DNA of 64,000 nt. Origin: Escherichia coli (GTDB taxonomy: Bacteria; Pseudomonadota; Gammaproteobacteria; Enterobacterales; Enterobacteriaceae). A program made the translations under genes and the position numbers. The DNA is taken from the NCBI RefSeq assembly GCF_003334405.1, contig NZ_QOWM01000012.1. One strand, 5' to 3'. This document shows positions 1-26,032 of the stretch, in pieces; the first letter of the stretch is position 1; each line of letters starts with the position of its first letter. A model generated the notes under the pieces. It saw only the letters and a list, made by a program, of their open reading frames with translations. It did no database searches and was not told where the DNA came from.

Positions 1-2534
1 GTGTTTTTCGTCCCCAAATCCGTACTGGATGCGCTGGCGCTGTGGGTGTGCGATTTAATGCCGTCCTGTTCCTGAGACAATACGGCACGACCACTGGCGG
101 GTTTGCCCTTAATCGTCCAGCCACGCATATCAGGGATCACGCCTGACGGATAAGCGGCTGCAAGTTTCGGGTATGCAGATTTGTCAAAAGTCTGTCCCTG
201 CATCAGGGCATAGCCAGACGGAACGGTATCTGATGGCCACGGGATTGGTGCGCCAGGCGGATAAAACTGCTCTGATGGCGTATAGAGTGAATAAACTGTA
301 CCGTCCGTTAACCCTTCCGGCTTATTAGCAGAATATGCTGGTGACGTATGAATCGTCACGCTGGCATTACTGGTATAATCCCATTGAATATTTACACCAG
401 TCGCATAATTTCCGATTGCAACGTAAATATCGTAAGTATCACCAGATGTATTGACCCAGGCAAAATTTGTAAACCCTGTCGATGTGCGCTGCCATAAAGC
501 ACCAGTAATCCCCTTCGGATTACCATTACCTGCACGCAAAACAAGTTCAGATATACCTGCCTGTTGAGGTGACCCCACGTTAAATCCCGCGCCACCAATC
601 AACGTAATTGAAACAACAGAACTCGCCTGTGGCATGGTTACCGTTGCTAATTTGAACCAACCAGCACCACCGCTGAATGACATTGTTGTTGAGTTAAGCG
701 TACCAATATCTTTCGGCGTCAGTGTTATATCCGCTGAAAGCGCCTTACCATTCACCTTACGGGCAGAAGGTACCCGACCATTCGCATTATCATTAGCTGC
801 TTTCACTGCTTTCGGTGTCGCGGCAAGCGTTTCAGATGCGCTGTTGGTTGCACTACTGAGCTGGACAATTCCTTTTTGTGCTGTCGTAGCGTCCTGAGCA
901 GTATATTTCCCGTTAGCAAGGTCATAGGCTGCCTTTACCGACTTTGGCGTTGCCGCCAGCATTTCAGATGTGCTGTTGGTCGCGTTGCTAAGCTGAACTA
1001 TCCCTTTCTGTGCTGTCGTTGCATCCTGTGCGGTGTATTTCCCGTTAGCCAGCTCATACGCGGCCTTAACGGCTTTTGGCGTTGCCGCCAGTGACTCGGA
1101 AGTGCTGTTAGTCGCACTGCTGAGCTGTACTATCCCCTTTTTCGTCGTGCTCGCATCCTCAAGCGCCACGGCGGATGCAATATCCTCTGCCCGTTTTGCC
1201 GCTGTCTCGGCGCGCGTTGCCGCGGATTCCGCCGTACTTTTGCTCTGAGCTGCCGCCGTCGCACTGCCAGCTGCCTCTGTCGCCTTCGTGGATGCCGTCG
1301 TGGCGCTGCCCTTTGCTGCTGACGCCTGTCTGGTCGCCTCATCTTTTGAAGCAGACGCAGATGATGCCGATGACGCCGCCGAACTGGCGGACGATGCGGC
1401 AGCCGTTTTTGAGGATTCTGCGCTGGTTTCCGACGCTTTCGCGTTCGTCTCGGATGTCTTCGCTGCGGAAGCAGACCTCGCTGCTGCGCTGGCCTGTACA
1501 GCGGCTTCGCCAGCCTTCGTTGTGGCTGTTGAAGCAGACGATGCAGCACTTTCTGCCGATTTTCCGGCGGCGGTGGCACTGGCTGAGGCCTGCCCGGCAC
1601 TTGTTGACGCGGCACTGGCAGATAATGCAGCCGCTGTTTTTGAGCCTGCCGCAGCTGAGGCGCTCTGTCCCGCTGCCGTTTCAGAAGACCTGGCGTTCGT
1701 CTCGGACGTTTTTGCCGCCTTCGCAGAATTTGCTGCCGCCGTTGCCGAGGAAGCTGCGCTGCTGGCGCTCGAGGCTGCGTTCGTTTCTGATGATTTTGCC
1801 GCCTCTTTTGAAGCCGACGCATCCCGTGCTGAAGTGGCTGCTTCTGACGCTTTCGTGGTCGCGGTGGATGCAGAAGTGGCTGCTGATTGTTGTGACGCTG
1901 CCGCATTCGTTTCTGACGTTTTCGCCGCACCGGCACTGGTAGCCGCCGCGCTTTTTGAGGACTCTGCAGCGGCAGCACTTTTTGATGCCTCAGAGGCTTT
2001 TGCTGATGCCGTTCCTGCGCTGGAAAAAGCCTCCTGAGCCGACGTCGCGGCCTGTCCGGCTGACGTGCTGGCTGCACGTGCTGAGCCTGCAGCATCAGTC
2101 GCATGGGTTGCCGCCTCACTGGCAGATGTGCTGGCATCACTGGCTGACTTCTTCGCGGCTGCCGTGTTCTGTGCCACTGCGGACGCGTTACGCACCACCT
2201 CTTCCACCATCAGTTCAAAACGTCGCAATGCCTCCGGACGGGCATCATCCTCCGTCATGGCACCGAGAAAATCATTCAGCGTACCGGGTTGAGAATCTTC
2301 ATACACGGTGATGGTCCCGGCATGTGACGGCGGGAATCCTTCCACCAACAGAATAACGCTGTACTGACCGTACTCAACGTCCATGCTGTAACGCCCGGCT
2401 TCATCCGGATTTTCTGAGGCCAGCGTGTTCACCACCACCGTGGTGCTGTTACGTTTTGCTTTCAGCTGGATTGTGCAGTTCTGTACCGGTTTTCCTGTGC
2501 CGTCTTTCAGTACACCTGAAATCTTTACTGCCAT
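1..2534 (-). CDS. stf: Side tail fiber protein Stf, partial (C-terminal end lies beyond the window start)
   Basis: Minus-strand ATG at 2534 gives [30 protein letters not shown]..., matching the lambda Stf N-terminus; a fragment at 1141-1200 translates [19 protein letters not shown] in the same frame; my manual scan of that frame from 1140 to 1 found no stop. Absent from the ORF track because it has no stop inside the window. Confidence 0.8.
780..1150. repeat. About 2.5 tandem copies of a ~132-bp unit inside stf (44-aa peptide repeat)
   Basis: Recurring blocks gctgttggt...tttcccgttagc...ggcgttgccgccag at ~132-bp spacing. Confidence 0.6.
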
Positions 2535-2545
2535 ATTCACCCCAC

Positions 2546-2576
2546 AAAAAAGCCCGCCTGAACCGGCGGGCTGTCA
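2546..2576 (-). terminator. Putative rho-independent terminator between lom and stf
   Basis: Minus-strand hairpin gcccgccggttcaggcgggc followed by a T-run. Confidence 0.5.
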
Positions 2577-2598
2577 TAACACTGTGTTACCTGGCTAA

Positions 2599-3198
2599 TC
2601 AGAATTTATAACCGACACCCATGATGAAACCGTCAGTGCGCCAGTCGCCACTGCCGGAGCCTTCATAAGCAATATCAATGGCCACGGATTCGGTCGGGTT
2701 AAACTGCACGCCAGCTCCCCACGCCAGAGACGTGTTGCTGTGGCGACCGTCATCACTTCCGGTCAGCACGTCGTGCGTTTTCCCCTTGTTGTCAGTTACG
2801 CGGAGATAATCCCCGGAGAAAGTCGACACACGGCTGTAAGCCACACCCGCCATCGCATACGCGCTGAACCATTCATTCACGCGCACAGACGGCCCCGCCA
2901 TCACGCTGAACCAGCGGTTACGAACGGAATCTTCATGCCAGCGGGTATCGCTGTAATGGGTCAGCTGGCGATTCTTGTCTCCTGCATAGCTGAATGACGT
3001 CACCATCCCCAGTGTGTCCGTAAACTCATAACGGTATTTCACGTTAATCCCGTTCAGATCATCGCTGCCGGGAACGTTCGTCGAGGCATGAAGATACCCC
3101 GCGCTCAGCGTGGACTGATGTTCAGATGCCCATGCAGGCGCACCGGATACGGCCAGACAAATGGCTGCGGAAAAAATGGCGGCATAAAGTTTACGCAT
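2599..3198 (-). CDS. lom: Lom/Ail-family outer membrane beta-barrel protein
   Basis: 199-aa ORF with signal peptide MRKLYAAIFSAAICLAVSGAPAWA and C-terminal GVGYKF; sits between J and stf as in lambda. Confidence 0.85.
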   Translation of the reverse strand: MRKLYAAIFSAAICLAVSGAPAWASEHQSTLSAGYLHASTNVPGSDDLNGINVKYRYEFTDTLGMVTSFSYAGDKNRQLTHYSDTRWHEDSVRNRWFSVMAGPSVRVNEWFSAYAMAGVAYSRVSTFSGDYLRVTDNKGKTHDVLTGSDDGRHSNTSLAWGAGVQFNPTESVAIDIAYEGSGSGDWRTDGFIMGVGYKF

Positions 3199-3220
3199 AA
3201 TTACCTCTCGCTTTTCTGCA

Positions 3221-3250
3221 ATAAAAAAGGCACCATTTCTGGTGCCCTTA
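3221..3250 (-). terminator. Putative rho-independent terminator downstream of the J remnant
   Basis: Minus-strand hairpin ggcaccagaaatggtgcc followed by ttttttatt. Confidence 0.45.
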
Positions 3251-3267
3251 TATGGGTTATAACAATT

Positions 3268-5294
3268 TCAACGAATACTGATGCCGGAAGCGGCTTTTTT
3301 GGTCACAATCACCGTACAGTCGGTGATATTACCTGCCCGCTGATTGCCTTTATGGAAAACCTTAAACTCCAGAGTGACGCTTCCCCTGCCACTCGGCATA
3401 TCAATAACCGCACTGTAGCTACCGGGAATGGCCCCTTTAGTTTCTCTGGATGCGATTAATACACCGTTTTTGCGAACTTCAAAACCATAACCCGTGTATC
3501 TTGTACCTCCCGGGTTATTACCACTTCCCGGATCGCTATACGCTATTCCGTTAAAGATAATGGGCGGAATAATAATCTGACGGTCAAAGTTATGATCATC
3601 GCTGATGGTGACTGTAACCGTCCCGTTTGGTGTTTCCGTGTTACCCCACGTACCAGCCTGTTTCGGAAATGATTTGGATACAGCTTTAACGAAGTCACCT
3701 CTGACCTGAGTCGCCTCCAGCATGCCCTTAATCGTACAGTTTTCATTTACCGTGACATTGTTGAGCGTCCCGGCGTTCGCATTCACACTGCCACTGATAT
3801 CCGCATTTTTAGCGGTCAGCTTTCCGTCCGGTGTCAGGGAAAATGCCGGTGGATTTCCACCGCTGGTAATGGTGGGGGCCGTCAGGCGTTTCAGGAACAC
3901 GTCGTTCATGAATATCTGATCGCCCTGACCAACAAACATCGGTTTTGTGTTGCCATTCGCAGGATTAACCATCGCAATCCTGTCCGCCGCCAGCAGCACC
4001 TGACTCTGCATGCCGTCAGGGGTGTTCTCAATACCGGCACCAATACCCGCGATATAAAGGCGTCCGTCCTGCATCTGCTGCAGCTTCACAGCCCACATGC
4101 TGTTCAGGTTATTATTTGTATCAACCTGAACCTTCTGTATCTGCTGAATTGCCGCACTCTGGTCTTCCAGTTTCTTATTGACGGTCTGCGTGATTTCATT
4201 GCTGACATCCGTAATGGACGTCCTGATTTCAGCCAGGTCAGGCGCAAGCTGACCGTTATCAATCTGCGTCCACAGCTCCTGAGCCAGATGGGTTTTCCCT
4301 ATCTCGCCTTTGAAAAAATCCAGATAGCCGGATGCATCATCACTCGGCCGACCAACAGCCTCCACGAATGCCGATTTGCCAACGGTGTTCACACTGCGAA
4401 CGTAAAAATAATAATCATGGCCCGGTTTGATATTGATACTGGCGGCTATCCAGTACAGCGCCGTACCAAGATAACGCGCGCTGGTTTCAACCTGCCTGAT
4501 ATCAGCAATCCGTTTTTCCGAGAACCAGAACTCAAACTGTACCGTCGGATCATAAACCGCAAGATGCGGCGTGGCGGTTATCTGAAAATAGCCCGGCGTC
4601 AGCTCAATCCGCGACGGCGCTGCCGGTGCGGCAACAGGCGCTGGCGCAACGTCGGCAGCTTCAGCCCCCATACGCTGTATTCAGCAACGCCGTCAGGAAC
4701 ACGGCTCACTTTCACCTTCACGCCGCCGGTGACGGACTGAACCTCCACGCTGACCGGACTCCCCTGCCCGTCAACCAGGCTTATCAGCGTGGTACCGGAG
4801 GATGGCAGCGTGATTTCACGGTCGAGCGTCAGCGTCCGGGTCTGGCTGTTTACCGCCAGCACGCGCCCGCCGGTGCGGATACCGGCATAGTCATCATCGC
4901 AGATTTCAATGACATCGCCCGGTACATGGCGAAGCCCTTCGGCACCCACGCTGAAGTCCACGGTCTGCGTTTCCAGCAGTTCTGTTTTAATCAGCCACAG
5001 CCCGGCGCGGTGTGCCTGCCCCCGGCTGGTACAGCCAAAGGCATCCATCTTCGTGACGTTACGACCGTAACGGGCAATGGCCTGCGTGTCCTCCACAAGC
5101 TCTGTTGCCGTCTCCCAGCCGTTGTCCGGGTCAATCCAGTTCACCTCAACGGCATTATGGCGGTCCTTCAGGGCGCTGAAGCTGTAGCGGAACGGCGCGT
5201 CATCATCCGGCATCACCACATTACTGCGGTTATAGGTCCACACCTTATCCCGAAGAAAACACCACCAGAGAGACCGCAGGTCCGGACAGAGCAT
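3268..5294 (-). pseudogene. J: Tail tip host-specificity protein J remnant: N-terminally truncated, with an internal out-of-frame deletion near 4640-4680
   Basis: ORF 4599..5294 matches the central region of lambda J (FRYSFSALKDRHNAVEVNWIDP...[14 protein letters not shown]); ORF 3268..4671 matches the J C-terminus ([36 protein letters not shown]...); the two frames overlap at 4599-4671. Confidence 0.8.
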
Positions 5295-5413
5295 TCAGCT
5301 CTGCCAGTGTTTCTCCCGGGATCACAGTCATATCGACATCATTAATCGAGGCTGTCTTTCCCATCTTTCTGACCGTGATAGCATCCATACGCGCTGCCAG
5401 CCGGGAAAAGGGA

Positions 5414-5782
5414 TCAGACATTGAGTTTTACCGGCACTTCTTCTGCACTGGTTCCGGCATCTGCCCAGACAACCCCGACCAGCGGATCAGAGCCGCTGTT
5501 AGTCAGCTGAATTTTTCCGGACTTCAGATAAACCTTCTTACCCGTTTTCATGTCATCCGTTTTCAGCTTAGGCAGCATAAACACACCTTCGGTCATGCCG
5601 TCGCCTGTTTCACCCTGTGGAATATCGGTCAGCGCCACCGCAAAAACATCGCCCACCTGCACCAGATCTCCGCTGCTGATGGCTGCACTGGCAACAATCG
5701 CCACCGTTTTTCCTTCTTCTACAAAATTCTTTGCCATAACTGTCTCCGCACAGCCCCGTTCAGGGGCTGATTTCAGGTACAA
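5414..5782 (-). CDS. Small head decoration/cement-like protein (DUF2190-like)
   Basis: 122-aa ORF MAKNFVEEGKTVAIVASAAISSGDLVQVGD..., directly downstream of the capsid gene. Confidence 0.6.
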   Translation of the reverse strand: MYLKSAPERGCAETVMAKNFVEEGKTVAIVASAAISSGDLVQVGDVFAVALTDIPQGETGDGMTEGVFMLPKLKTDDMKTGKKVYLKSGKIQLTNSGSDPLVGVVWADAGTSAEEVPVKLNV

Positions 5783-5823
5783 AAAAAGCCCTTACGGGCC
5801 ATCAGAGTTGTTGTCTGCGACGT

Positions 5824-7782
5824 TTACGCCGTACATTTCACCAGACCGCGGTGATCAACTGGCGCGACACCGGCGTCAATACGCACTTTCGTTGTCACGC
5901 CATCCACACTGAAGCCCTCCATCTGATCAATATATGGCGTATCCACACCGTTGAGATAAGCCACTTCAATCGTATCGGAGCCTTTTGACGCAGCCAGGTA
6001 GAAGGTGGTCTGGCTGTTATCATCAAGACGAGGCTCTGCAATAACGGTCGCAAAATCTTTCACCGGGTTAATAATACCGGCGTTAATGTCAGCCCCCTTG
6101 ACACTTGAGGAGCGAATGACCTGGTTAGCAACAGACTCCATCGCCGTCGGTACCAGTACGAACGCAGGACGAATATTCAGATGACGCTCCCCCTCTTTCT
6201 GAACGCGCATCAACTGGCGGGCTTTATCCAGCGATGCCACGTCCATTGCAGCGCTCTCCAGTACGTTTGCATGTTTCGCTTTATCGAACAGACTTACATT
6301 ATCTGTGGAGATTTTCGGGTTAGACGTCAGAATGGCATAAACCAGATCGGCAATAGTGGATTTCGCCGCACGGCCCAGTTTCATCGGGACATCGGTCAGC
6401 ATATTCAGATCATCATTGATAATGGCCTGACGGGTGATACTGAACAGCTCGCCATAGGTCGCCAGTGCAATAGTGGCCTGTTTATCTCCGGTGGTGACGT
6501 ATTTATATTCCGCCCCTTCACGCACCTGACGCAGAGCACTGAAGCCCCCCATACCCACACGATGGGCAATTTTAAAATCAGACAACTGACCTTTCCGCGT
6601 CCACTGTTCATAGGTTTCAGGGGCATCTTCCCAGCCCTGCAGAATGGCTTTGTTCGCAACATCCAGCAGAATATTACCGAAGTCAGACGTACTGTGTGTG
6701 AACGCCGCACCGACCATCTGCATCGGGTTATAACCGGAAACCCCAATACCCCGTTCAGTTAGTGACATACGGGCATATTCACGCAGGGTCATCCCGTTGT
6801 AGACATTATCACGTTCGGTTTTTTCAAATCCGGCACGCGCCATCAGCGCCTGGCGAATCCCGTCCCCCACAAAATTACCGTTACCGGCATAAATATGAGC
6901 CGGGGTATTTTTATTGGATGGCGTGGACTCGCGCCCCATCTCGTTCAACAGCTTTTCACGGGCCTGCTCCAGCGAACATTCAGGATCGGCAAGACACTGA
7001 GCCTGCAGCGTCTGATAACGCCCGCCAAACATGGCAAACAGATCATTAATACCGTTTACACGCGCTTTTTGCTCTGCCAGTACCTGCGCACGGATGCTGT
7101 TTTCATCCACCACGGGTGCTGCTGCCTGCACTGGCGTCCGGGAGGCTTCAGATTCATTATCCTGTACGCGTGGAGCACTGTTGCGTGGCGGAGTAATCAT
7201 GTTTCGAATGGATTCCGGCATCTTTTTAAATTCCTCTGTACGTTTTGACTGAATACATGCCATTGCCTTAACGGCTGGCGTTACCTGATCAGCAAATCCA
7301 TGTGCCAGACATTCGGCACCGGACATCCAGGTCTCATCCGCCAGCATGGCAGCAATTTCATCGGTGGTTTTCCCGGTTTTCTGTGCATAAGCGGGTAACA
7401 GAACCGCCTCAACTTTATCGAGCAGGTCGGCATAGGTGCGCATGTCCTCCGCATCACCGCCCGTAAAGCCAAATGGTTTATGAATCATCATGAAGGTGTT
7501 TTCCGGCATAATGACCGGGTTTCCTACCATCGCAATGACCGACGCCATTGACGCCGCCACACCGTCGACATAAACGGTAATGGACGCACCATGTGTTTTC
7601 AGCGCATTAAAAATGGCGATGCCTTCAAAGACATCGCCACCCGGTGAATTAATATGGAGATTAATGTGGGTGATATCGCCCAGTGCATTCAGATCACTGA
7701 TAAACTGCTTCGCTGTAACACCCCAGAAACCAATCTCGTCATAAATATAAATATCCGCGTCACTCTGGTGACCAGCCTGCAT
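5824..7782 (-). CDS. ClpP-like prohead protease fused to an HK97-fold major capsid protein
   Basis: ORF track gives 5824..8043 (739 aa); the first ~87 codons overlap the terminase ORF, so the likely start is the ATG at 7782 (MQAGHQSDADIYIYDEIGFW). ClpP-like block NSPGGDVFEGIAIFNALK...ASMASVIAMVG, then a capsid-like C-terminal half. Confidence 0.8.
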   Translation of the reverse strand: MQAGHQSDADIYIYDEIGFWGVTAKQFISDLNALGDITHINLHINSPGGDVFEGIAIFNALKTHGASITVYVDGVAASMASVIAMVGNPVIMPENTFMMIHKPFGFTGGDAEDMRTYADLLDKVEAVLLPAYAQKTGKTTDEIAAMLADETWMSGAECLAHGFADQVTPAVKAMACIQSKRTEEFKKMPESIRNMITPPRNSAPRVQDNESEASRTPVQAAAPVVDENSIRAQVLAEQKARVNGINDLFAMFGGRYQTLQAQCLADPECSLEQAREKLLNEMGRESTPSNKNTPAHIYAGNGNFVGDGIRQALMARAGFEKTERDNVYNGMTLREYARMSLTERGIGVSGYNPMQMVGAAFTHSTSDFGNILLDVANKAILQGWEDAPETYEQWTRKGQLSDFKIAHRVGMGGFSALRQVREGAEYKYVTTGDKQATIALATYGELFSITRQAIINDDLNMLTDVPMKLGRAAKSTIADLVYAILTSNPKISTDNVSLFDKAKHANVLESAAMDVASLDKARQLMRVQKEGERHLNIRPAFVLVPTAMESVANQVIRSSSVKGADINAGIINPVKDFATVIAEPRLDDNSQTTFYLAASKGSDTIEVAYLNGVDTPYIDQMEGFSVDGVTTKVRIDAGVAPVDHRGLVKCTA

Positions 7783-7795
7783 CCTGAACCAGGAA

Positions 7796-9592
7796 TTATT
7801 CTTCGGACTGGTCGTCGGTGTGCTGCGGCTCCTGTCGTTTCGTTGCGGCACTACTGCCTCCTTTATCACTGGCCGGATCGGTATCAAATACCAGATCCAG
7901 CTTGCGGTTTTCATCAATTTCGGCCTTGCGCCGACGTTTGACATCATCCGGATTACGACCACCAGCACGTACCCAGTCTGATTCTGTCGCCGCTCCACCA
8001 CGAATCTGGATTTTCCAGGCCTCAGCCTCCTTAACAGGGTCAATCCACGGCATCACTGGTCCGGAATACACCGCGGTATACAGTGAAGAACGGTCAAGAT
8101 CGCGGGGTAGCCTGATAACACCGGATGCCACAGCCTGTTTCAGCCACGCACGATACATCGGGCGGGTGACGGCACCAATAAACCAGTCCTGCAGGATCAG
8201 GTAGCTGGCCGGATCAATTCGCTGGCTCTCCCCGTCGCTGTCACCGCGCAATGACTGCGTGATGTTGTAACGATCAATAATCCAGCGTTCGCCACGGCTG
8301 CCATAGCCCGTTACCTGAACCACAAAACGGCGATGACGTCCCGCCTGCACATCCACTGTCGCCACAAGGAAATTAACGCCATCCGGCACACTGCGGGAAG
8401 GAACTGGCTCTGCCCGCTGCTCAAGCAGTTCACTTTTTCGTTGCTCCATGCTGGCGCGGGGAAGATAAGGTAATCCCCAGTCGGTATTGATAACCGTCTT
8501 GAGTGTTTCTTCACTTCCGGTTGTCTCGTATTCCTGTTCTGCAGTAAGCAGTTTGTAAACGAGTTGCGAGAGTGTCTGGTAAGCAGCTGCCGGACCCTCC
8601 ATCCAGAATGACGCAATACGTGAGCGTCGGGGATCACCATAACGACTGCCATCCGCATTGATGGATTCACCATCCCGCAACCAGACCCCACGTCCGTTCA
8701 GCTCACGTTTGTGTTCAGGCATAATCCGTCCTGAACAGGAAGGACACTGAATATAAGCCGCCTCACTTGCCAGCACGGGATCGGCAATATCACGGAAACC
8801 AGCAACCACATCGCCGCAGGGCTGAAAATACTCACCACAGTGTGGACAGGGCCAGTACCAGCGACGGCGATCGCCACGGTTATAGAGCGACAGTATCCCC
8901 GTGGTTGGTGGAGCCTCATGCGGTGAAGTCCGTCGCCATTTCACATCCTTCACATCCCTGCCGGGGGAACTCTCCACAAGCGTCATACCACTGGACATAA
9001 ATGTTGTGGTACGTTTTGAGGCAAGAGAGAAAGCATCCCCCTCGCCATCAATATCTTCCGGAAAACGGTCATAATCCGTCAGCGCGACGCATTTATAATC
9101 TGATGAGGACATGATATTGACTGACGGCCAGCCGATTTTCAGGTAGTTACCAGCAAGGAATGTTCTGTCATAAACGTTGTTGTCATTTTTGTTCGGACTC
9201 AGGCGACTGACCACTTCCGGGCTGACGCGAAACGTTCTGGCGAGTCGTTTTTTGGAGTGTTCGCGGGCTTTTTCCTCCGTCATCTGAATGATCAGCATAT
9301 CAGCAGGATCGCAAATCACGTTGTAAATCACCCAGCCGTCAATCAGGCCGATAGTCTTGCCGGTTCGTGCCGGGCCAACAAATATCACTGCGTCGTATTC
9401 ACGCGAGGCCAGGCAGTTCATCGGCTCAATAACATACGGTGCCACCAGCGGATCCCACGGGACTGAGTTCCCTGCCCCCATGGGCACCCGCATATACTGA
9501 GCAACGGCATCAGCAACCCGCATTCGTCTCGGTGCGCGAAGGATATAACCTGAATCGGTTCGTGCTGCCTTTGCGGTTTCCTGATTCAGCAT
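7796..9592 (-). CDS. Terminase large subunit, lambda GpA family (the C-terminal ~90 aa may be a fused remnant, see findings)
   Basis: 598-aa ORF with Walker A VGPARTGKT and zinc-finger-like WPCPHCGEYF...CPSCSG, typical of GpA-type terminases. Confidence 0.85.
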   Translation of the reverse strand: MLNQETAKAARTDSGYILRAPRRMRVADAVAQYMRVPMGAGNSVPWDPLVAPYVIEPMNCLASREYDAVIFVGPARTGKTIGLIDGWVIYNVICDPADMLIIQMTEEKAREHSKKRLARTFRVSPEVVSRLSPNKNDNNVYDRTFLAGNYLKIGWPSVNIMSSSDYKCVALTDYDRFPEDIDGEGDAFSLASKRTTTFMSSGMTLVESSPGRDVKDVKWRRTSPHEAPPTTGILSLYNRGDRRRWYWPCPHCGEYFQPCGDVVAGFRDIADPVLASEAAYIQCPSCSGRIMPEHKRELNGRGVWLRDGESINADGSRYGDPRRSRIASFWMEGPAAAYQTLSQLVYKLLTAEQEYETTGSEETLKTVINTDWGLPYLPRASMEQRKSELLEQRAEPVPSRSVPDGVNFLVATVDVQAGRHRRFVVQVTGYGSRGERWIIDRYNITQSLRGDSDGESQRIDPASYLILQDWFIGAVTRPMYRAWLKQAVASGVIRLPRDLDRSSLYTAVYSGPVMPWIDPVKEAEAWKIQIRGGAATESDWVRAGGRNPDDVKRRRKAEIDENRKLDLVFDTDPASDKGGSSAATKRQEPQHTDDQSEE

Positions 9593-10086
9593 TACTCCTC
9601 CTGCTGTAATTCCTCCTCATCATCCGCACCTGCTTCAGTCACCCGCAGGGCTATCTGATCGCGCAGATCATCAATAATGGACTGAACACGGCTCACAGCG
9701 GCAGGCTGCAGACCGCAGTCACGTTCAAGAATATCCGGTAATGTCTCCAGCACCTGCACGACCGCTTTTGCCCAGATGGCAAACTCCCGTCTGACATCAC
9801 TGGCCGGAATGAGTTGTGCCGTTTCCTGTTCGAACTTAAGACGCTCACGTTCAGACTGATACCAAGCTTTGCGCTCATGCGCGTCCATTTCGCCTTCTGC
9901 AACCGGCGGTGGTAATGCCAGAAATGCCGACACAATATCAACCACCCGATAAAGCTTGAGGTTGCTTTCATGCCCCCCTGCAACGGGTAGATTTTGCAGC
10001 CTTGCCGCAGCAGTCTGGCGATGTACACCTGACAGTGCCGCCAGTTGACTGATATTCAGCGTCAGATTTTTCAACTCTCGATCCAT
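9592..10086 (-). CDS. Terminase small subunit (Nu1-like)
   Basis: 164-aa ORF directly upstream of and overlapping the terminase large subunit start; N-terminal HTH-like LTLNISQLAALSGVHRQTAAARL; acidic C-terminus. Confidence 0.75.
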   Translation of the reverse strand: MDRELKNLTLNISQLAALSGVHRQTAAARLQNLPVAGGHESNLKLYRVVDIVSAFLALPPPVAEGEMDAHERKAWYQSERERLKFEQETAQLIPASDVRREFAIWAKAVVQVLETLPDILERDCGLQPAAVSRVQSIIDDLRDQIALRVTEAGADDEEELQQEE

Positions 10087-10249
10087 ACCCGCTCCAGAAT
10101 GTTTTAAACATGCATCTTGCGAACAACTTTAGGCAAACGGTGTTAGCGATGAACAAAAAACAATCAAAATCGACACCGTAAAAATAAAAACACTGTAATA
10201 TCAATATATTACAGTAGTGGTGATGACGAATAAAATTTCAAAAACTAGC

Positions 10250-10290
10250 CTTTTTCCGCGACGCTCCCGCCCCGTGGCAGGCCACCCCAC
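10250..10290. other. Candidate cos site
   Basis: Minus-strand CACGGGGCGGGAGCGTCGCGG followed downstream by TTCGTCAT, resembling lambda cosN GGGGCGGCGACCTCGCGG...CTTCGTCAT; lies just upstream of the Nu1-like gene. Confidence 0.4.
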
Positions 10291-10539
10291 CGGAAGGACC
10301 CGCCAAAATGAGAGTGATTATCACCATTGCTGATGAATAAATTGATGAAAATCATTGAAACGCCTTTCAGCAAGATAACGGCGACGGTCGTTGTTGAACT
10401 CCGTAGCTCTGCTACTAAGGTTAAAAGCATGGCCATCTTTTGCCACCGGCAAATCTTCAATGGATTTCCCCTGCCGGTTTTTTATTCCTCACATTATCGC
10501 AGCCCCTCAGTGAAGGGCTGCTGTAATGCCTGCTCTTAC

Positions 10540-10902
10540 TCAGTAACGACCGCGCCTTCCGGTAATTTCATACCGGCAAATACCGGACAGCCCGGGGATC
10601 GTTATCTGCAGCTGGTTAGCCAGGGAGTTAATCTCAGCGACCAACACTGGCTTCGTATAGCGCCATGCCGCCAGCCCTTGTCCACAGAAGCTCGCCATAT
10701 CTTTTTTCTGATCAAACTCATGACACTTCATATTGAGCTGCGCACTTAAGCTGTTGCGATGCTGAAGTTCTCCGGTGAAGTAGTCATCCAGGACTTTATA
10801 GGCTGCATATTTAAATCCGGGGTTTAGCCATGCTGCATAATCATAAGCAACAAACTTCCCGCCATATGTTCCACCGTGTACACCGCGCTCAGTAAAAACC
10901 AC
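10540..10902 (-). CDS. Hypothetical phage protein with a KilA-N-like motif
   Basis: 120-aa ORF; GGTYGGKFVAYDYAAWLNPGF resembles the conserved KilA-N core also seen in the 265-aa ORF at 16986..17783. Confidence 0.45.
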   Translation of the reverse strand: MVFTERGVHGGTYGGKFVAYDYAAWLNPGFKYAAYKVLDDYFTGELQHRNSLSAQLNMKCHEFDQKKDMASFCGQGLAAWRYTKPVLVAEINSLANQLQITIPGLSGICRYEITGRRGRY

Positions 10903-10923
10903 AGATTCGTGTTTTTTCTCCAG

Positions 10924-11391
10924 CTACTTAATGCGCTGGGTGCGGATATATTCCTGCGCCCCTTCCAGTTGCTTCTGCATCGTCATCAACCGTTCTCTGA
11001 GGGTGAAATAATCCCGTTCAGCGGTGTCTGCCAGTCGGGGGCTGGTTGCATTATCCATGCTGGTGGGTCCGGTGGCTTCACGCACGGCTGCGGAGCAACT
11101 GGCATTGACCCGCAGGCGCTTACGACCAGCGGCAACATCAGCGCGCAGAGTTTCATTTTCAGTTTTCGCATCGGCTAACTCCTTCGTGTATTTTGCATCG
11201 ATCGCAGCAACATCACGCTGACGCTGCTGCATGTCAGCGATGGTGGCGGTCGCCTGCTTCAGCTCACTGACTTTTTTATCACGCTGTTCTTTGTAGGCGA
11301 TGGCGTTATCACGGTAATGATTGACCGCCCACGACAGGCAGACGATGATGCAGATAACCAGAGCGGAGATAATCGCGGTTACTCTGCTCAT
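10924..11391 (-). CDS. Rz: Spanin inner-membrane subunit Rz
   Basis: Strongly similar to lambda Rz ([31 protein letters not shown]...); ORF track start is 11403, likely start is MSRV at ~11391. Confidence 0.85.
10986..11171 (-). CDS. Rz1: Spanin outer-membrane lipoprotein Rz1, embedded in Rz in another frame
   Basis: 61-aa ORF with lipobox LVVSAC and proline-rich [29 protein letters not shown], as in lambda Rz1. Confidence 0.8.
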
Positions 11392-24438: not shown

Positions 24439-24788
24439 TGGAGCCATACAGCCTCACACTCGATGAGGCCTGTCATTTTCTCAAGATATCCAGACCGACT
24501 GCCATTAACTGGATACGCACAGGGCGTCTTCAGGCAACACGCAAAGATCCCACTAAGAATAAATCTCCTTACCTCACAACACGACAAGCCTGCATTGCGG
24601 CTCTTCAGTCTCCGCTGCATACTGTCCAGGTGAGCGCGGGTGATGGCATAACAGAGGAAAGAAAATGTCACTCTTCCGCAGAGGTGAAATATGGTACGCC
24701 AGTTTCACATTGCCGAACGGTAAAAGATTTAAACAGTCTCTTGGAACAAAGGACAAAAGGCAGGCGACAGAACTCCATGACAAGCTAA
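24438..24788 (+). CDS. xis: Excisionase (P22 Xis-like, long form)
   Basis: Starts [37 protein letters not shown] (HTH); ~117 aa, overlapping the int start as in P22. Confidence 0.6.
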
Positions 24789-25828
24789 AGGCTGAAGCAT
24801 GGCGGGTCAGCAAACTTGGTGAAATACCTGATATAACGTTCGAGGAAGCGTGTGTCAGGTGGCTTGAAGAGAAAGCATATAAAAAATCACTGGACGATGA
24901 CAAAAGCCGGATCGGATTCTGGCTTCAACATTTCGCAGGAATGCAACTAAGAGACATTACTGAATCAAAAATTTATTCAGCAATGCAGAAAATGACGAAC
25001 CGGCGTCATGAGGAAAACTGGAAACTCAGGGCAGAAGCATGCAGAAAAAAAGGGAAACCTGTTCCAGAATACACGCCAAAACCAGCGTCCGTTGCAACGA
25101 AGGCTACGCATCTTTCATTTATAAAGGCCCTACTAAGAGCCGCAGAGCGTGAATGGAAAATGCTGGATAAGGCACCAATTATTAAAGTGCCTCAACCAAA
25201 GAATAAACGGATCCGCTGGCTGGAGCCCCATGAAGCACAAAGGCTGATTGATGAATGTCCGGAGCCATTAAAGTCTGTTGTTGAATTTGCACTGGCAACA
25301 GGCTTAAGACGCTCGAACATCATCAACCTTGAATGGCAACAAATAGATATGCAGCGCCGGGTGGCATGGATAAACCCGGAAGAGAGTAAATCAAACCGCG
25401 CAATCGGCGTTGCGCTGAATGATACTGCATGTCGCGTTTTGAAAAAACAAATCGGGAATCATCACCGTTGGGTATTTGTGTACAAGGAAAGCTGTACCAA
25501 ACCAGACGGAACGAAAGCGCCAACAGTAAGGAAGATGCGGTATGACGCAAACACAGCCTGGAAAGCGGCGCTGAGACGGGCTGGTATTGATGATTTCAGA
25601 TTTCACGACTTGAGACACACCTGGGCAAGTTGGCTGGTTCAAGCCGGAGTCCCGTTGTCAGTGTTACAGGAAATGGGAGGCTGGGAGTCTATCGAAATGG
25701 TTCGTCGATATGCTCACCTTGCACCTAATCACCTTACCGAACACGCACGGCAAATAGACTCGATCCTGAACCCATCGGTCCCAAATTCGTCCCAGTCAAA
25801 AAATAAGGAAGGTACTAATGATGTGTAA
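24665..25828 (+). CDS. int: Tyrosine integrase (P22 Int-like), thrW-specific
   Basis: 387-aa [37 protein letters not shown]...; catalytic region [39 protein letters not shown]; adjacent to the tRNA-Thr 3' end. Confidence 0.9.
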
Positions 25829-25841
25829 CTTATTGATTTAA

Positions 25842-25917
25842 ATGGTGCCGATAATAGGAGTCGAACCTACGACCTTCGCATTACGAATGCGCTGCTCTAC
25901 CAACTGAGCTATATCGG
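25842..25917 (-). tRNA. thrW: tRNA-Thr (anticodon CGU)
   Basis: Minus-strand read GCCGATATAGCTCAGTTGGTAGAGCAGCGCATTCGTAATGCGAAGGTCGTAGGTTCGACTCCTATTATCGGCACCA; coordinates +/-1. Confidence 0.9.
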
Positions 25918-26032
25918 CCCTGAAAGGACATGTTCACGAACGTGAATCACGGTGGACAAGGTTAAAACTAACCGGGCGATGCGTCAATGGCCTTGTGAAT
26001 CAAATGGCTACTTTTGCATCACCCGGTTTTAT

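Follow-up and report, generated by a model that had tools for sequence, protein, structure and literature searches.

What kind of gene is a side tail fibre gene that survives in a prophage without tail genes, and which part of it has been exchanged relative to phage lambda? These questions are raised by stf, an open reading frame (ORF) at positions 1–2534, on the minus strand, of a 64,000-nucleotide (nt) stretch of Escherichia coli DNA (RefSeq assembly GCF_003334405.1, contig NZ_QOWM01000012.1), which was analysed as a whole and is referred to here as the window. An earlier note, made from the letters of the window alone, had drawn attention to tandem repeats in this fibre and to a C-terminal region described as unlike that of lambda. 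The comparisons presented here indicate that stf is very probably a standard lambdoid side tail fibre gene, a common allele of mosaic composition, of which a recently stranded and apparently still intact copy is carried by a deletion-riddled prophage at thrW.

The stf frame starts with an ATG at position 2534 and runs through 844 codons without a stop to position 3, where its last full codon ends, and it thus stays open past position 1 as had been noted earlier. The gene is truncated by the window edge: its first 85% is present, and approximately 143 codons are missing relative to a homologue of 987 amino acids (aa) in strain KE58. This strain provided the best match among complete E. coli genomes (99.8% nt identity over window positions 1–2600), and its gene product (WP_072034732.1, 'prophage tail fiber N-terminal domain-containing protein') is identical to the window protein at 843 of 844 residues. 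KE58 carries the same allele; unlike the window copy, however, it sits in an apparently complete prophage at the ydfJ/Qin site rather than at thrW, with lom, a full J gene and all tail genes upstream and with tfaQ and pinQ downstream. In the window, the minus-strand gene order is J remnant, lom, stf, which is identical to the order in lambda and as expected of a lambdoid Stf.

For comparison at the protein level, the Stf of Ur-lambda was reconstructed by joining the orf-401 and orf-314 frame of NC_001416, yielding the known 774-aa protein (P03764). The N-terminal tail-attachment domain of the window protein (residues 1–134; window 2133–2534, minus strand) belongs to PF08400, the prophage tail fibre N-terminal domain family (E 2.6e-71), and is 90% identical to Ur-lambda Stf, the first 286 residues being 87% identical to lambda orf-401. 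Additionally, residues 1–94 match the 'Tail fiber protein' chain of PDB 9e7m/9mgh (9e7m_Ta; E 3e-52), whose sequence is that of lambda orf-401 residues 1–94. In Ur-lambda, the corresponding N-terminal residues build a collar at the gpV/gpM junction (PMC12617516). The domain is followed by an Ala/Ser-rich shaft (residues 135–461; window 1152–2132, minus strand) that is homologous to the proximal coiled coil of lambda Stf and is 95% identical to StfR of E. coli K-12, though only 60% identical to Ur-lambda Stf because of a 105-aa (315-nt) insertion at window 1312–1626. Four SETNA motifs were identified in the window protein compared with three in lambda. The lambda-like character that had been ascribed to the N-terminus and shaft therefore holds for the former, while the latter is lambda-like apart from its insertion.

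The shaft leads into three tandem 44-aa 'phage tail fibre repeat' units of 132 nt each (window 1020–1151, 888–1019 and 756–887; together 756–1151, minus strand), all of which are recognised by the repeat family PF03406 (residues 462–502, 506–546 and 550–590; E 3e-19 to 1e-18). Tandem Repeats Finder reported a period of 132 over positions 826–1136 (2.4 copies, 80% matches, score 405). Both the repeats and the open frame are genuine and go well past what chance would produce, and the span of 780–1150 given in the earlier note was essentially right. The region also matches the Mu tail fibre protein S (PDB 5yvq, 8ju3). Its supposed divergence from lambda was not borne out: PF03406 is present in one copy in lambda Stf, as it is in StfR and in phage 2H10, each window unit is 70–76% identical to lambda's single unit at the protein level, and the DNA of all three repeats matches one and the same lambda segment at 79–82% identity. 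Among alleles that carry the middle module described below, P0003 has a single copy, P0005 has two or more and the window gene has three.

Between the repeats and the C-terminal part lies a 164-aa internal module (residues 594–757; window 264–755, minus strand), predicted to form an all-beta sandwich, for which no match was found in the Ur-lambda Stf protein. It takes the place of lambda residues 394–528, which form the hinge and distal shaft in lambda Stf (PMC12617516) and to which it is unrelated. In line with this, a DNA comparison with lambda returned no match for window 262–801 or 1312–1626, and the middle module and the shaft insertion are the only two segments of the window protein without a lambda counterpart. 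Pfam and NCBIfam contained no family for the middle module (nor did NCBIfam contain one for the whole protein), and the module is nonetheless widespread: it matches three PHROG tail-fibre families (E 1e-70 to 1e-93) and has homologues in E. coli, E. albertii and Salmonella (about 55–60% identity) as well as in Pseudomonas (43%), being joined to different downstream domains in the E. coli, Salmonella and Pseudomonas proteins. Furthermore, it occurs at 46–92% identity in isolated phages as diverse as the lambdoid phi458, P1/SSU5-like phage-plasmids, Mu-like Yersinia phages, Salmonella ST64B and T4-like phages. Engineered lambda Stf chimeras that proved functional were fused at R393 and S528 (PMC11338833), and these are the same two boundaries as those of the natural module in the window gene; its borders, one behind the repeat unit and the other ahead of the collar, thus coincide with the fusion points that engineers have used to retarget lambda particles.

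The remainder of the window protein (residues 758–844; window 3–263, minus strand) is the collar domain of a receptor-binding tip of the T4 gp37/lambda type and ends at the first His-x-His box. It was identified through PF07484 (Phage Tail Collar domain; residues 761–808, E 1.2e-11) and through a match of residues 744–843 to the T4 gp37 receptor-binding tip (PDB 2XGF, E 7e-43), while the box itself, SHTHS at residues 828–832, is the single one within the window. Sequence close to the window start had been considered divergent from lambda, and the opposite was observed: the collar is 90.7% identical to Ur-lambda Stf residues 530–615, and the DNA of window 1–261 is 86.6% identical to lambda orf-314. 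The T4 gp37 tip shares this collar, aligned over 100 residues, and the KE58 homologue has seven boxes of the His-x-His type that is also found in the reportedly metal-binding needle of gp37. It differs in that the rest of the T4 protein is unrelated, the apex of the tip is different, and the chaperones are gp38/gp57 instead of the Tfa type associated with stf.

The part of the tip that lies beyond the window could be read in the KE58 protein, the C-terminal 230 residues of which are 69% identical to lambda orf-314 and contain the same His-x-His scaffold as Ur-lambda Stf, ending in ...NIAFNYIVRLA. Alignment of the tips of KE58, lambda, StfR and three isolated phages revealed a nearly invariant collar, conserved His-x-His boxes and, between these boxes, one hypervariable stretch of approximately 55 residues that varies between most alleles; the analogy with gp37 suggests that this apex is the receptor-contact part. 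StfR of the cryptic Rac prophage (b1372, 1120 aa) resembles the window gene in both composition and setting, as it is 95.6% identical over residues 1–496 and 98% identical in the collar, shares the C-terminal scaffold, and likewise adjoins lom in a prophage without tail genes, followed by tfa and pin. It differs in that its repeat unit is single, its middle region is another and longer one (approximately 390 aa) and its apex is not the same. Ur-lambda Stf in turn shares with the window gene its place after J and lom, the Ala/Ser shaft, the PF03406 unit and the gp37-type collar, and differs in the number of repeat units (one compared with three), in the shaft insertion, in the middle module and, as read in the full-length homologue, in the apex between the His boxes.

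These data allow the earlier proposal to be weighed, according to which an exchange has given the fibre a receptor-binding C-terminal end unlike that of lambda and the tandem repeats act as a recombination substrate that drives host-range variation. The gene is indeed a mosaic with no lambda counterpart across window 264–755, alleles do differ in their number of repeat copies (lambda and StfR, like P0003, have one), and the apex of the full-length homologue differs from that of lambda. However, the end that lies closest to the window edge is a gp37-type collar 91% identical to lambda, which already contradicts the proposal for this domain, and the homologue aligns with lambda orf-314 throughout its C-terminal 230 aa; the piece swapped inside the window is an internal shaft or hinge module and not the receptor-binding end. 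Comparison of the C-terminal region with known receptor-binding domains, which the earlier note had recommended, accordingly leads to T4 gp37 for the collar, the apex being visible in homologues only. As for the repeats, pairs of units are identical at 29–37 of 44 residues and at 77–100 of 132 nt (58–76% DNA identity) with a longest identical run of 17 nt, and are therefore poor substrates for RecA-type exchange; they are weak recombination substrates today, and the gain or loss of a unit alters the length of the fibre and leaves its tip as it is. The proposal is thus considered unlikely as a whole: the observations on which it was built are confirmed in part and the interpretation is partly supported, the extra tandem repeats and the mosaic nature of the gene having stood, and the location of the exchange and the significance attached to the repeats having not.

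A different possibility is that the beta-sandwich module constitutes a second, carbohydrate-binding receptor module, such that a surface glycan would be bound through the module and a protein or the lipopolysaccharide (LPS) core through the gp37-type tip. Gifsy-1, a lambda-like phage, has an Stf that can bind an LPS core sugar (PMC12312913), which lends this idea some appeal. Against it, the structure model of the module is of moderate confidence, its structural matches show a high root-mean-square deviation (4–8 Å) and low identity, such domains are mostly structural adaptors in the matched tailspikes, and no binding-site residues could be identified; moreover, the distal domains downstream of the module are of quite different kinds, a pattern that fits a shaft element. 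This explanation is therefore as improbable as a swapped C-terminal end. Slightly more doubtful still is the broader suggestion that the 164-aa module is an independent glycan-binding unit giving such fibres two receptor specificities, and/or that the stranded intact stf is supplied in trans to co-resident lambdoid phages; were it true, the host range of such phages would be altered by stf in trans without recombination. Switching of the fibre end by a neighbouring Pin-type DNA invertase, as occurs in the Mu G, P1 C and e14 P segments, is highly improbable. Homologous loci do carry pinQ or another invertase beside tfa, but the crossover core AAACCNNGGTTT was absent, with one mismatch allowed, from both the window stf and the 26.6-kilobase (kb) KE58 locus, and KE58 possesses a single tfa and a single fibre end.

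Three points weigh against the reading of stf as a standard lambdoid fibre gene of common, mosaic type. The model of the middle module attained a predicted local distance difference test score (pLDDT) of only 62; in the apex windows, the KE58 tip agrees with that of lambda in just 14 of 59 aligned columns; and the last approximately 143 codons and tfa lie beyond the window, the only identical public contig ending at window position 222. This contig (Logan SRR3989531_205), which was found via a 231-aa ORF spanning a deletion junction, is 100% identical to window 222–11028 and ends inside the collar; such a break is what one would predict were this sequence shared by further stf copies in the genome.

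The commonness of the allele was evaluated among 5426 complete E. coli genomes, 1316 of which (approximately 24%) carry at least 80% of window 1–2600 in one place. The middle module is present in 1298 of these 5426 genomes, with 1209 records at 99% identity or more, and genomes with any match contain a median of three stf-like places. The window stf is thus a common, ordinary allele that is already annotated in RefSeq. Its importance beyond annotation is small, although it offers a textbook example of mosaic tail fibre evolution and contains, in its internal beta-sandwich, a widespread module that lacks a curated family.

The prophage that harbours this allele is integrated at the tRNA-Thr(CGT) gene thrW (25843–25918, minus strand) beside proA, and its tyrosine integrase is encoded at 24665–25828. 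Its losses were mapped by BLAST against the related prophage of strain S115, with the KE58 prophage also being compared, and the tail-less state reported in the earlier note was substantiated: three deletions have removed the tail genes, the portal and part of the terminase. The first, of 416 nt inside J (about 4628–4634), causes a frameshift in that gene and is marked by a 7-nt overlap between the flanking matches. The second (5246–5250; 5-nt overlap) removes the tail genes from the N-terminus of J, including its N-terminal third, through Z. The third, of about 2.0 kb (8202–8205), removes most of the portal gene and fuses the large terminase to the portal end in an ORF at 7796–9592 on the minus strand. 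The exact deletion pattern with its J junctions was found in none of the 5426 complete genomes and in one public read-set assembly, the Logan contig mentioned above.

Retention of stf and lom in such a prophage had been regarded as odd. However, the Rac prophage of K-12 shows the same state, with tail genes lost and lom and stf kept, its layout comprising a tape-measure fragment, lomR, an intact stfR, tfaR and pinR. Since the window stf differs by one residue from the copy in the intact KE58 prophage, the deletions must be recent, and with such near-identity to copies in intact prophages the retained intact frame requires neither selection nor any special explanation. The tail-less state is ordinary prophage decay.

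On a lambda-like tail, the protein would form a trimer, as suggested by its homology to Ur-lambda Stf (PMC12617516), with the N-terminal domain docking on the tail tube near the tip. The long Ala/Ser coiled-coil shaft, lengthened by the 105-aa insertion and two extra repeats, would probably give the fibre more reach, the beta-sandwich module would stand in for lambda's hinge and distal shaft, and the fibre would end in a tip of the gp37/lambda type made up of the collar, a His-x-His needle and the hypervariable apex. Folding would presumably depend on a Tfa chaperone encoded downstream. The apex may bind an outer-membrane receptor and thereby provide fast reversible adsorption before the irreversible binding by J; in the case of Ur-lambda Stf, binding to OmpC speeds reversible adsorption (PMC12617516), although OmpC binding cannot be assumed for the window fibre because the apex of its closest homologue differs from that of lambda.

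As the prophage lacks tail genes, portal and part of the terminase, the fibre is unusable by its own phage, and its only plausible role would be that of donor DNA for recombination or possibly of a fibre supplied in trans to related phages. The conserved repeat unit and the collar, which flank the exchangeable modules, probably provide the sites at which phages and prophages cross over by homologous recombination. Recombination of lambda with the stf/tfa genes of two defective prophages, Rac and Qin, has been measured at about 2e-6 per phage and proceeds via Red-beta and RecA (PMC3945230). Cryptic prophages like the present element are documented donors of fibre sequence to infecting phages.

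Upstream of stf, and separated from it by a gap of 64 nt, lies an intact lom gene (2599–3198, minus strand) that encodes an Ail/Lom outer-membrane beta-barrel protein of 199 aa, as judged from its ORF, from the annotation of homologues and from PF06316 on the identical Logan contig. The J remnant, the former tail-tip gene, occupies 3268–5250 on the minus strand, where it was delimited by BLAST against the KE58 and S115 prophages and is split into two ORFs, one of 467 aa and one of 231 aa; no exact protein match to the former was found. At 5824–8043 on the minus strand, a ClpP-like prohead protease forms one protein with the major capsid protein, a fusion that is also annotated in related prophages, and a PF09956 'phage cement' gene (5414–5782) adjoins it. 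The head module is not lambda-like, although the fibre region is. Strain NCTC9041 has this early region next to another late region, likewise degraded, in which pinE and fibre genes of the Mu/P2 type are found.

A consensus scan identified a terminator-like hairpin followed by a T-run in the lom–stf gap (2551–2572, minus strand; eight pairs, seven of them G-C), 16 nt upstream of the stf ATG, and phage Ayreon carries an annotated 'terminator' at the equivalent place. A second terminator-like hairpin is located in the J–lom gap (3226–3249, minus strand); the total number of such hairpins returned by the scan was not above the expectation from shuffled sequence. Together, the two hairpins would set lom apart as a unit of its own, in which case stf would need antiterminated late transcription. 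A sigma-70 promoter scan of window 1–3400 detected no promoter-like site, which is consistent with stf possibly relying on read-through late transcription.

The Ala/Ser-rich shaft also contains overlapping long ORFs in other frames (249, 255 and 336 aa; plus strand 1175–2037, minus strand 1130–2140). All are most likely by-products of GCN-rich codon periodicity comparable to lambda's annotated orf206b, and those on the plus strand, at 1175–1942 and 1288–2037, were rejected as genes. The only Rfam match was a sub-threshold hit to isrG, a Salmonella small RNA, at window 1538–1786 on the plus strand, antisense to the stf shaft (E 5e-6). An isrG RNA gene was likewise dismissed, since the match scores 32.9 bits where the gathering score is 100, has a large gap in its interior and breaks several of the pairs; it probably reflects similarity to prophage fibre shaft sequence.
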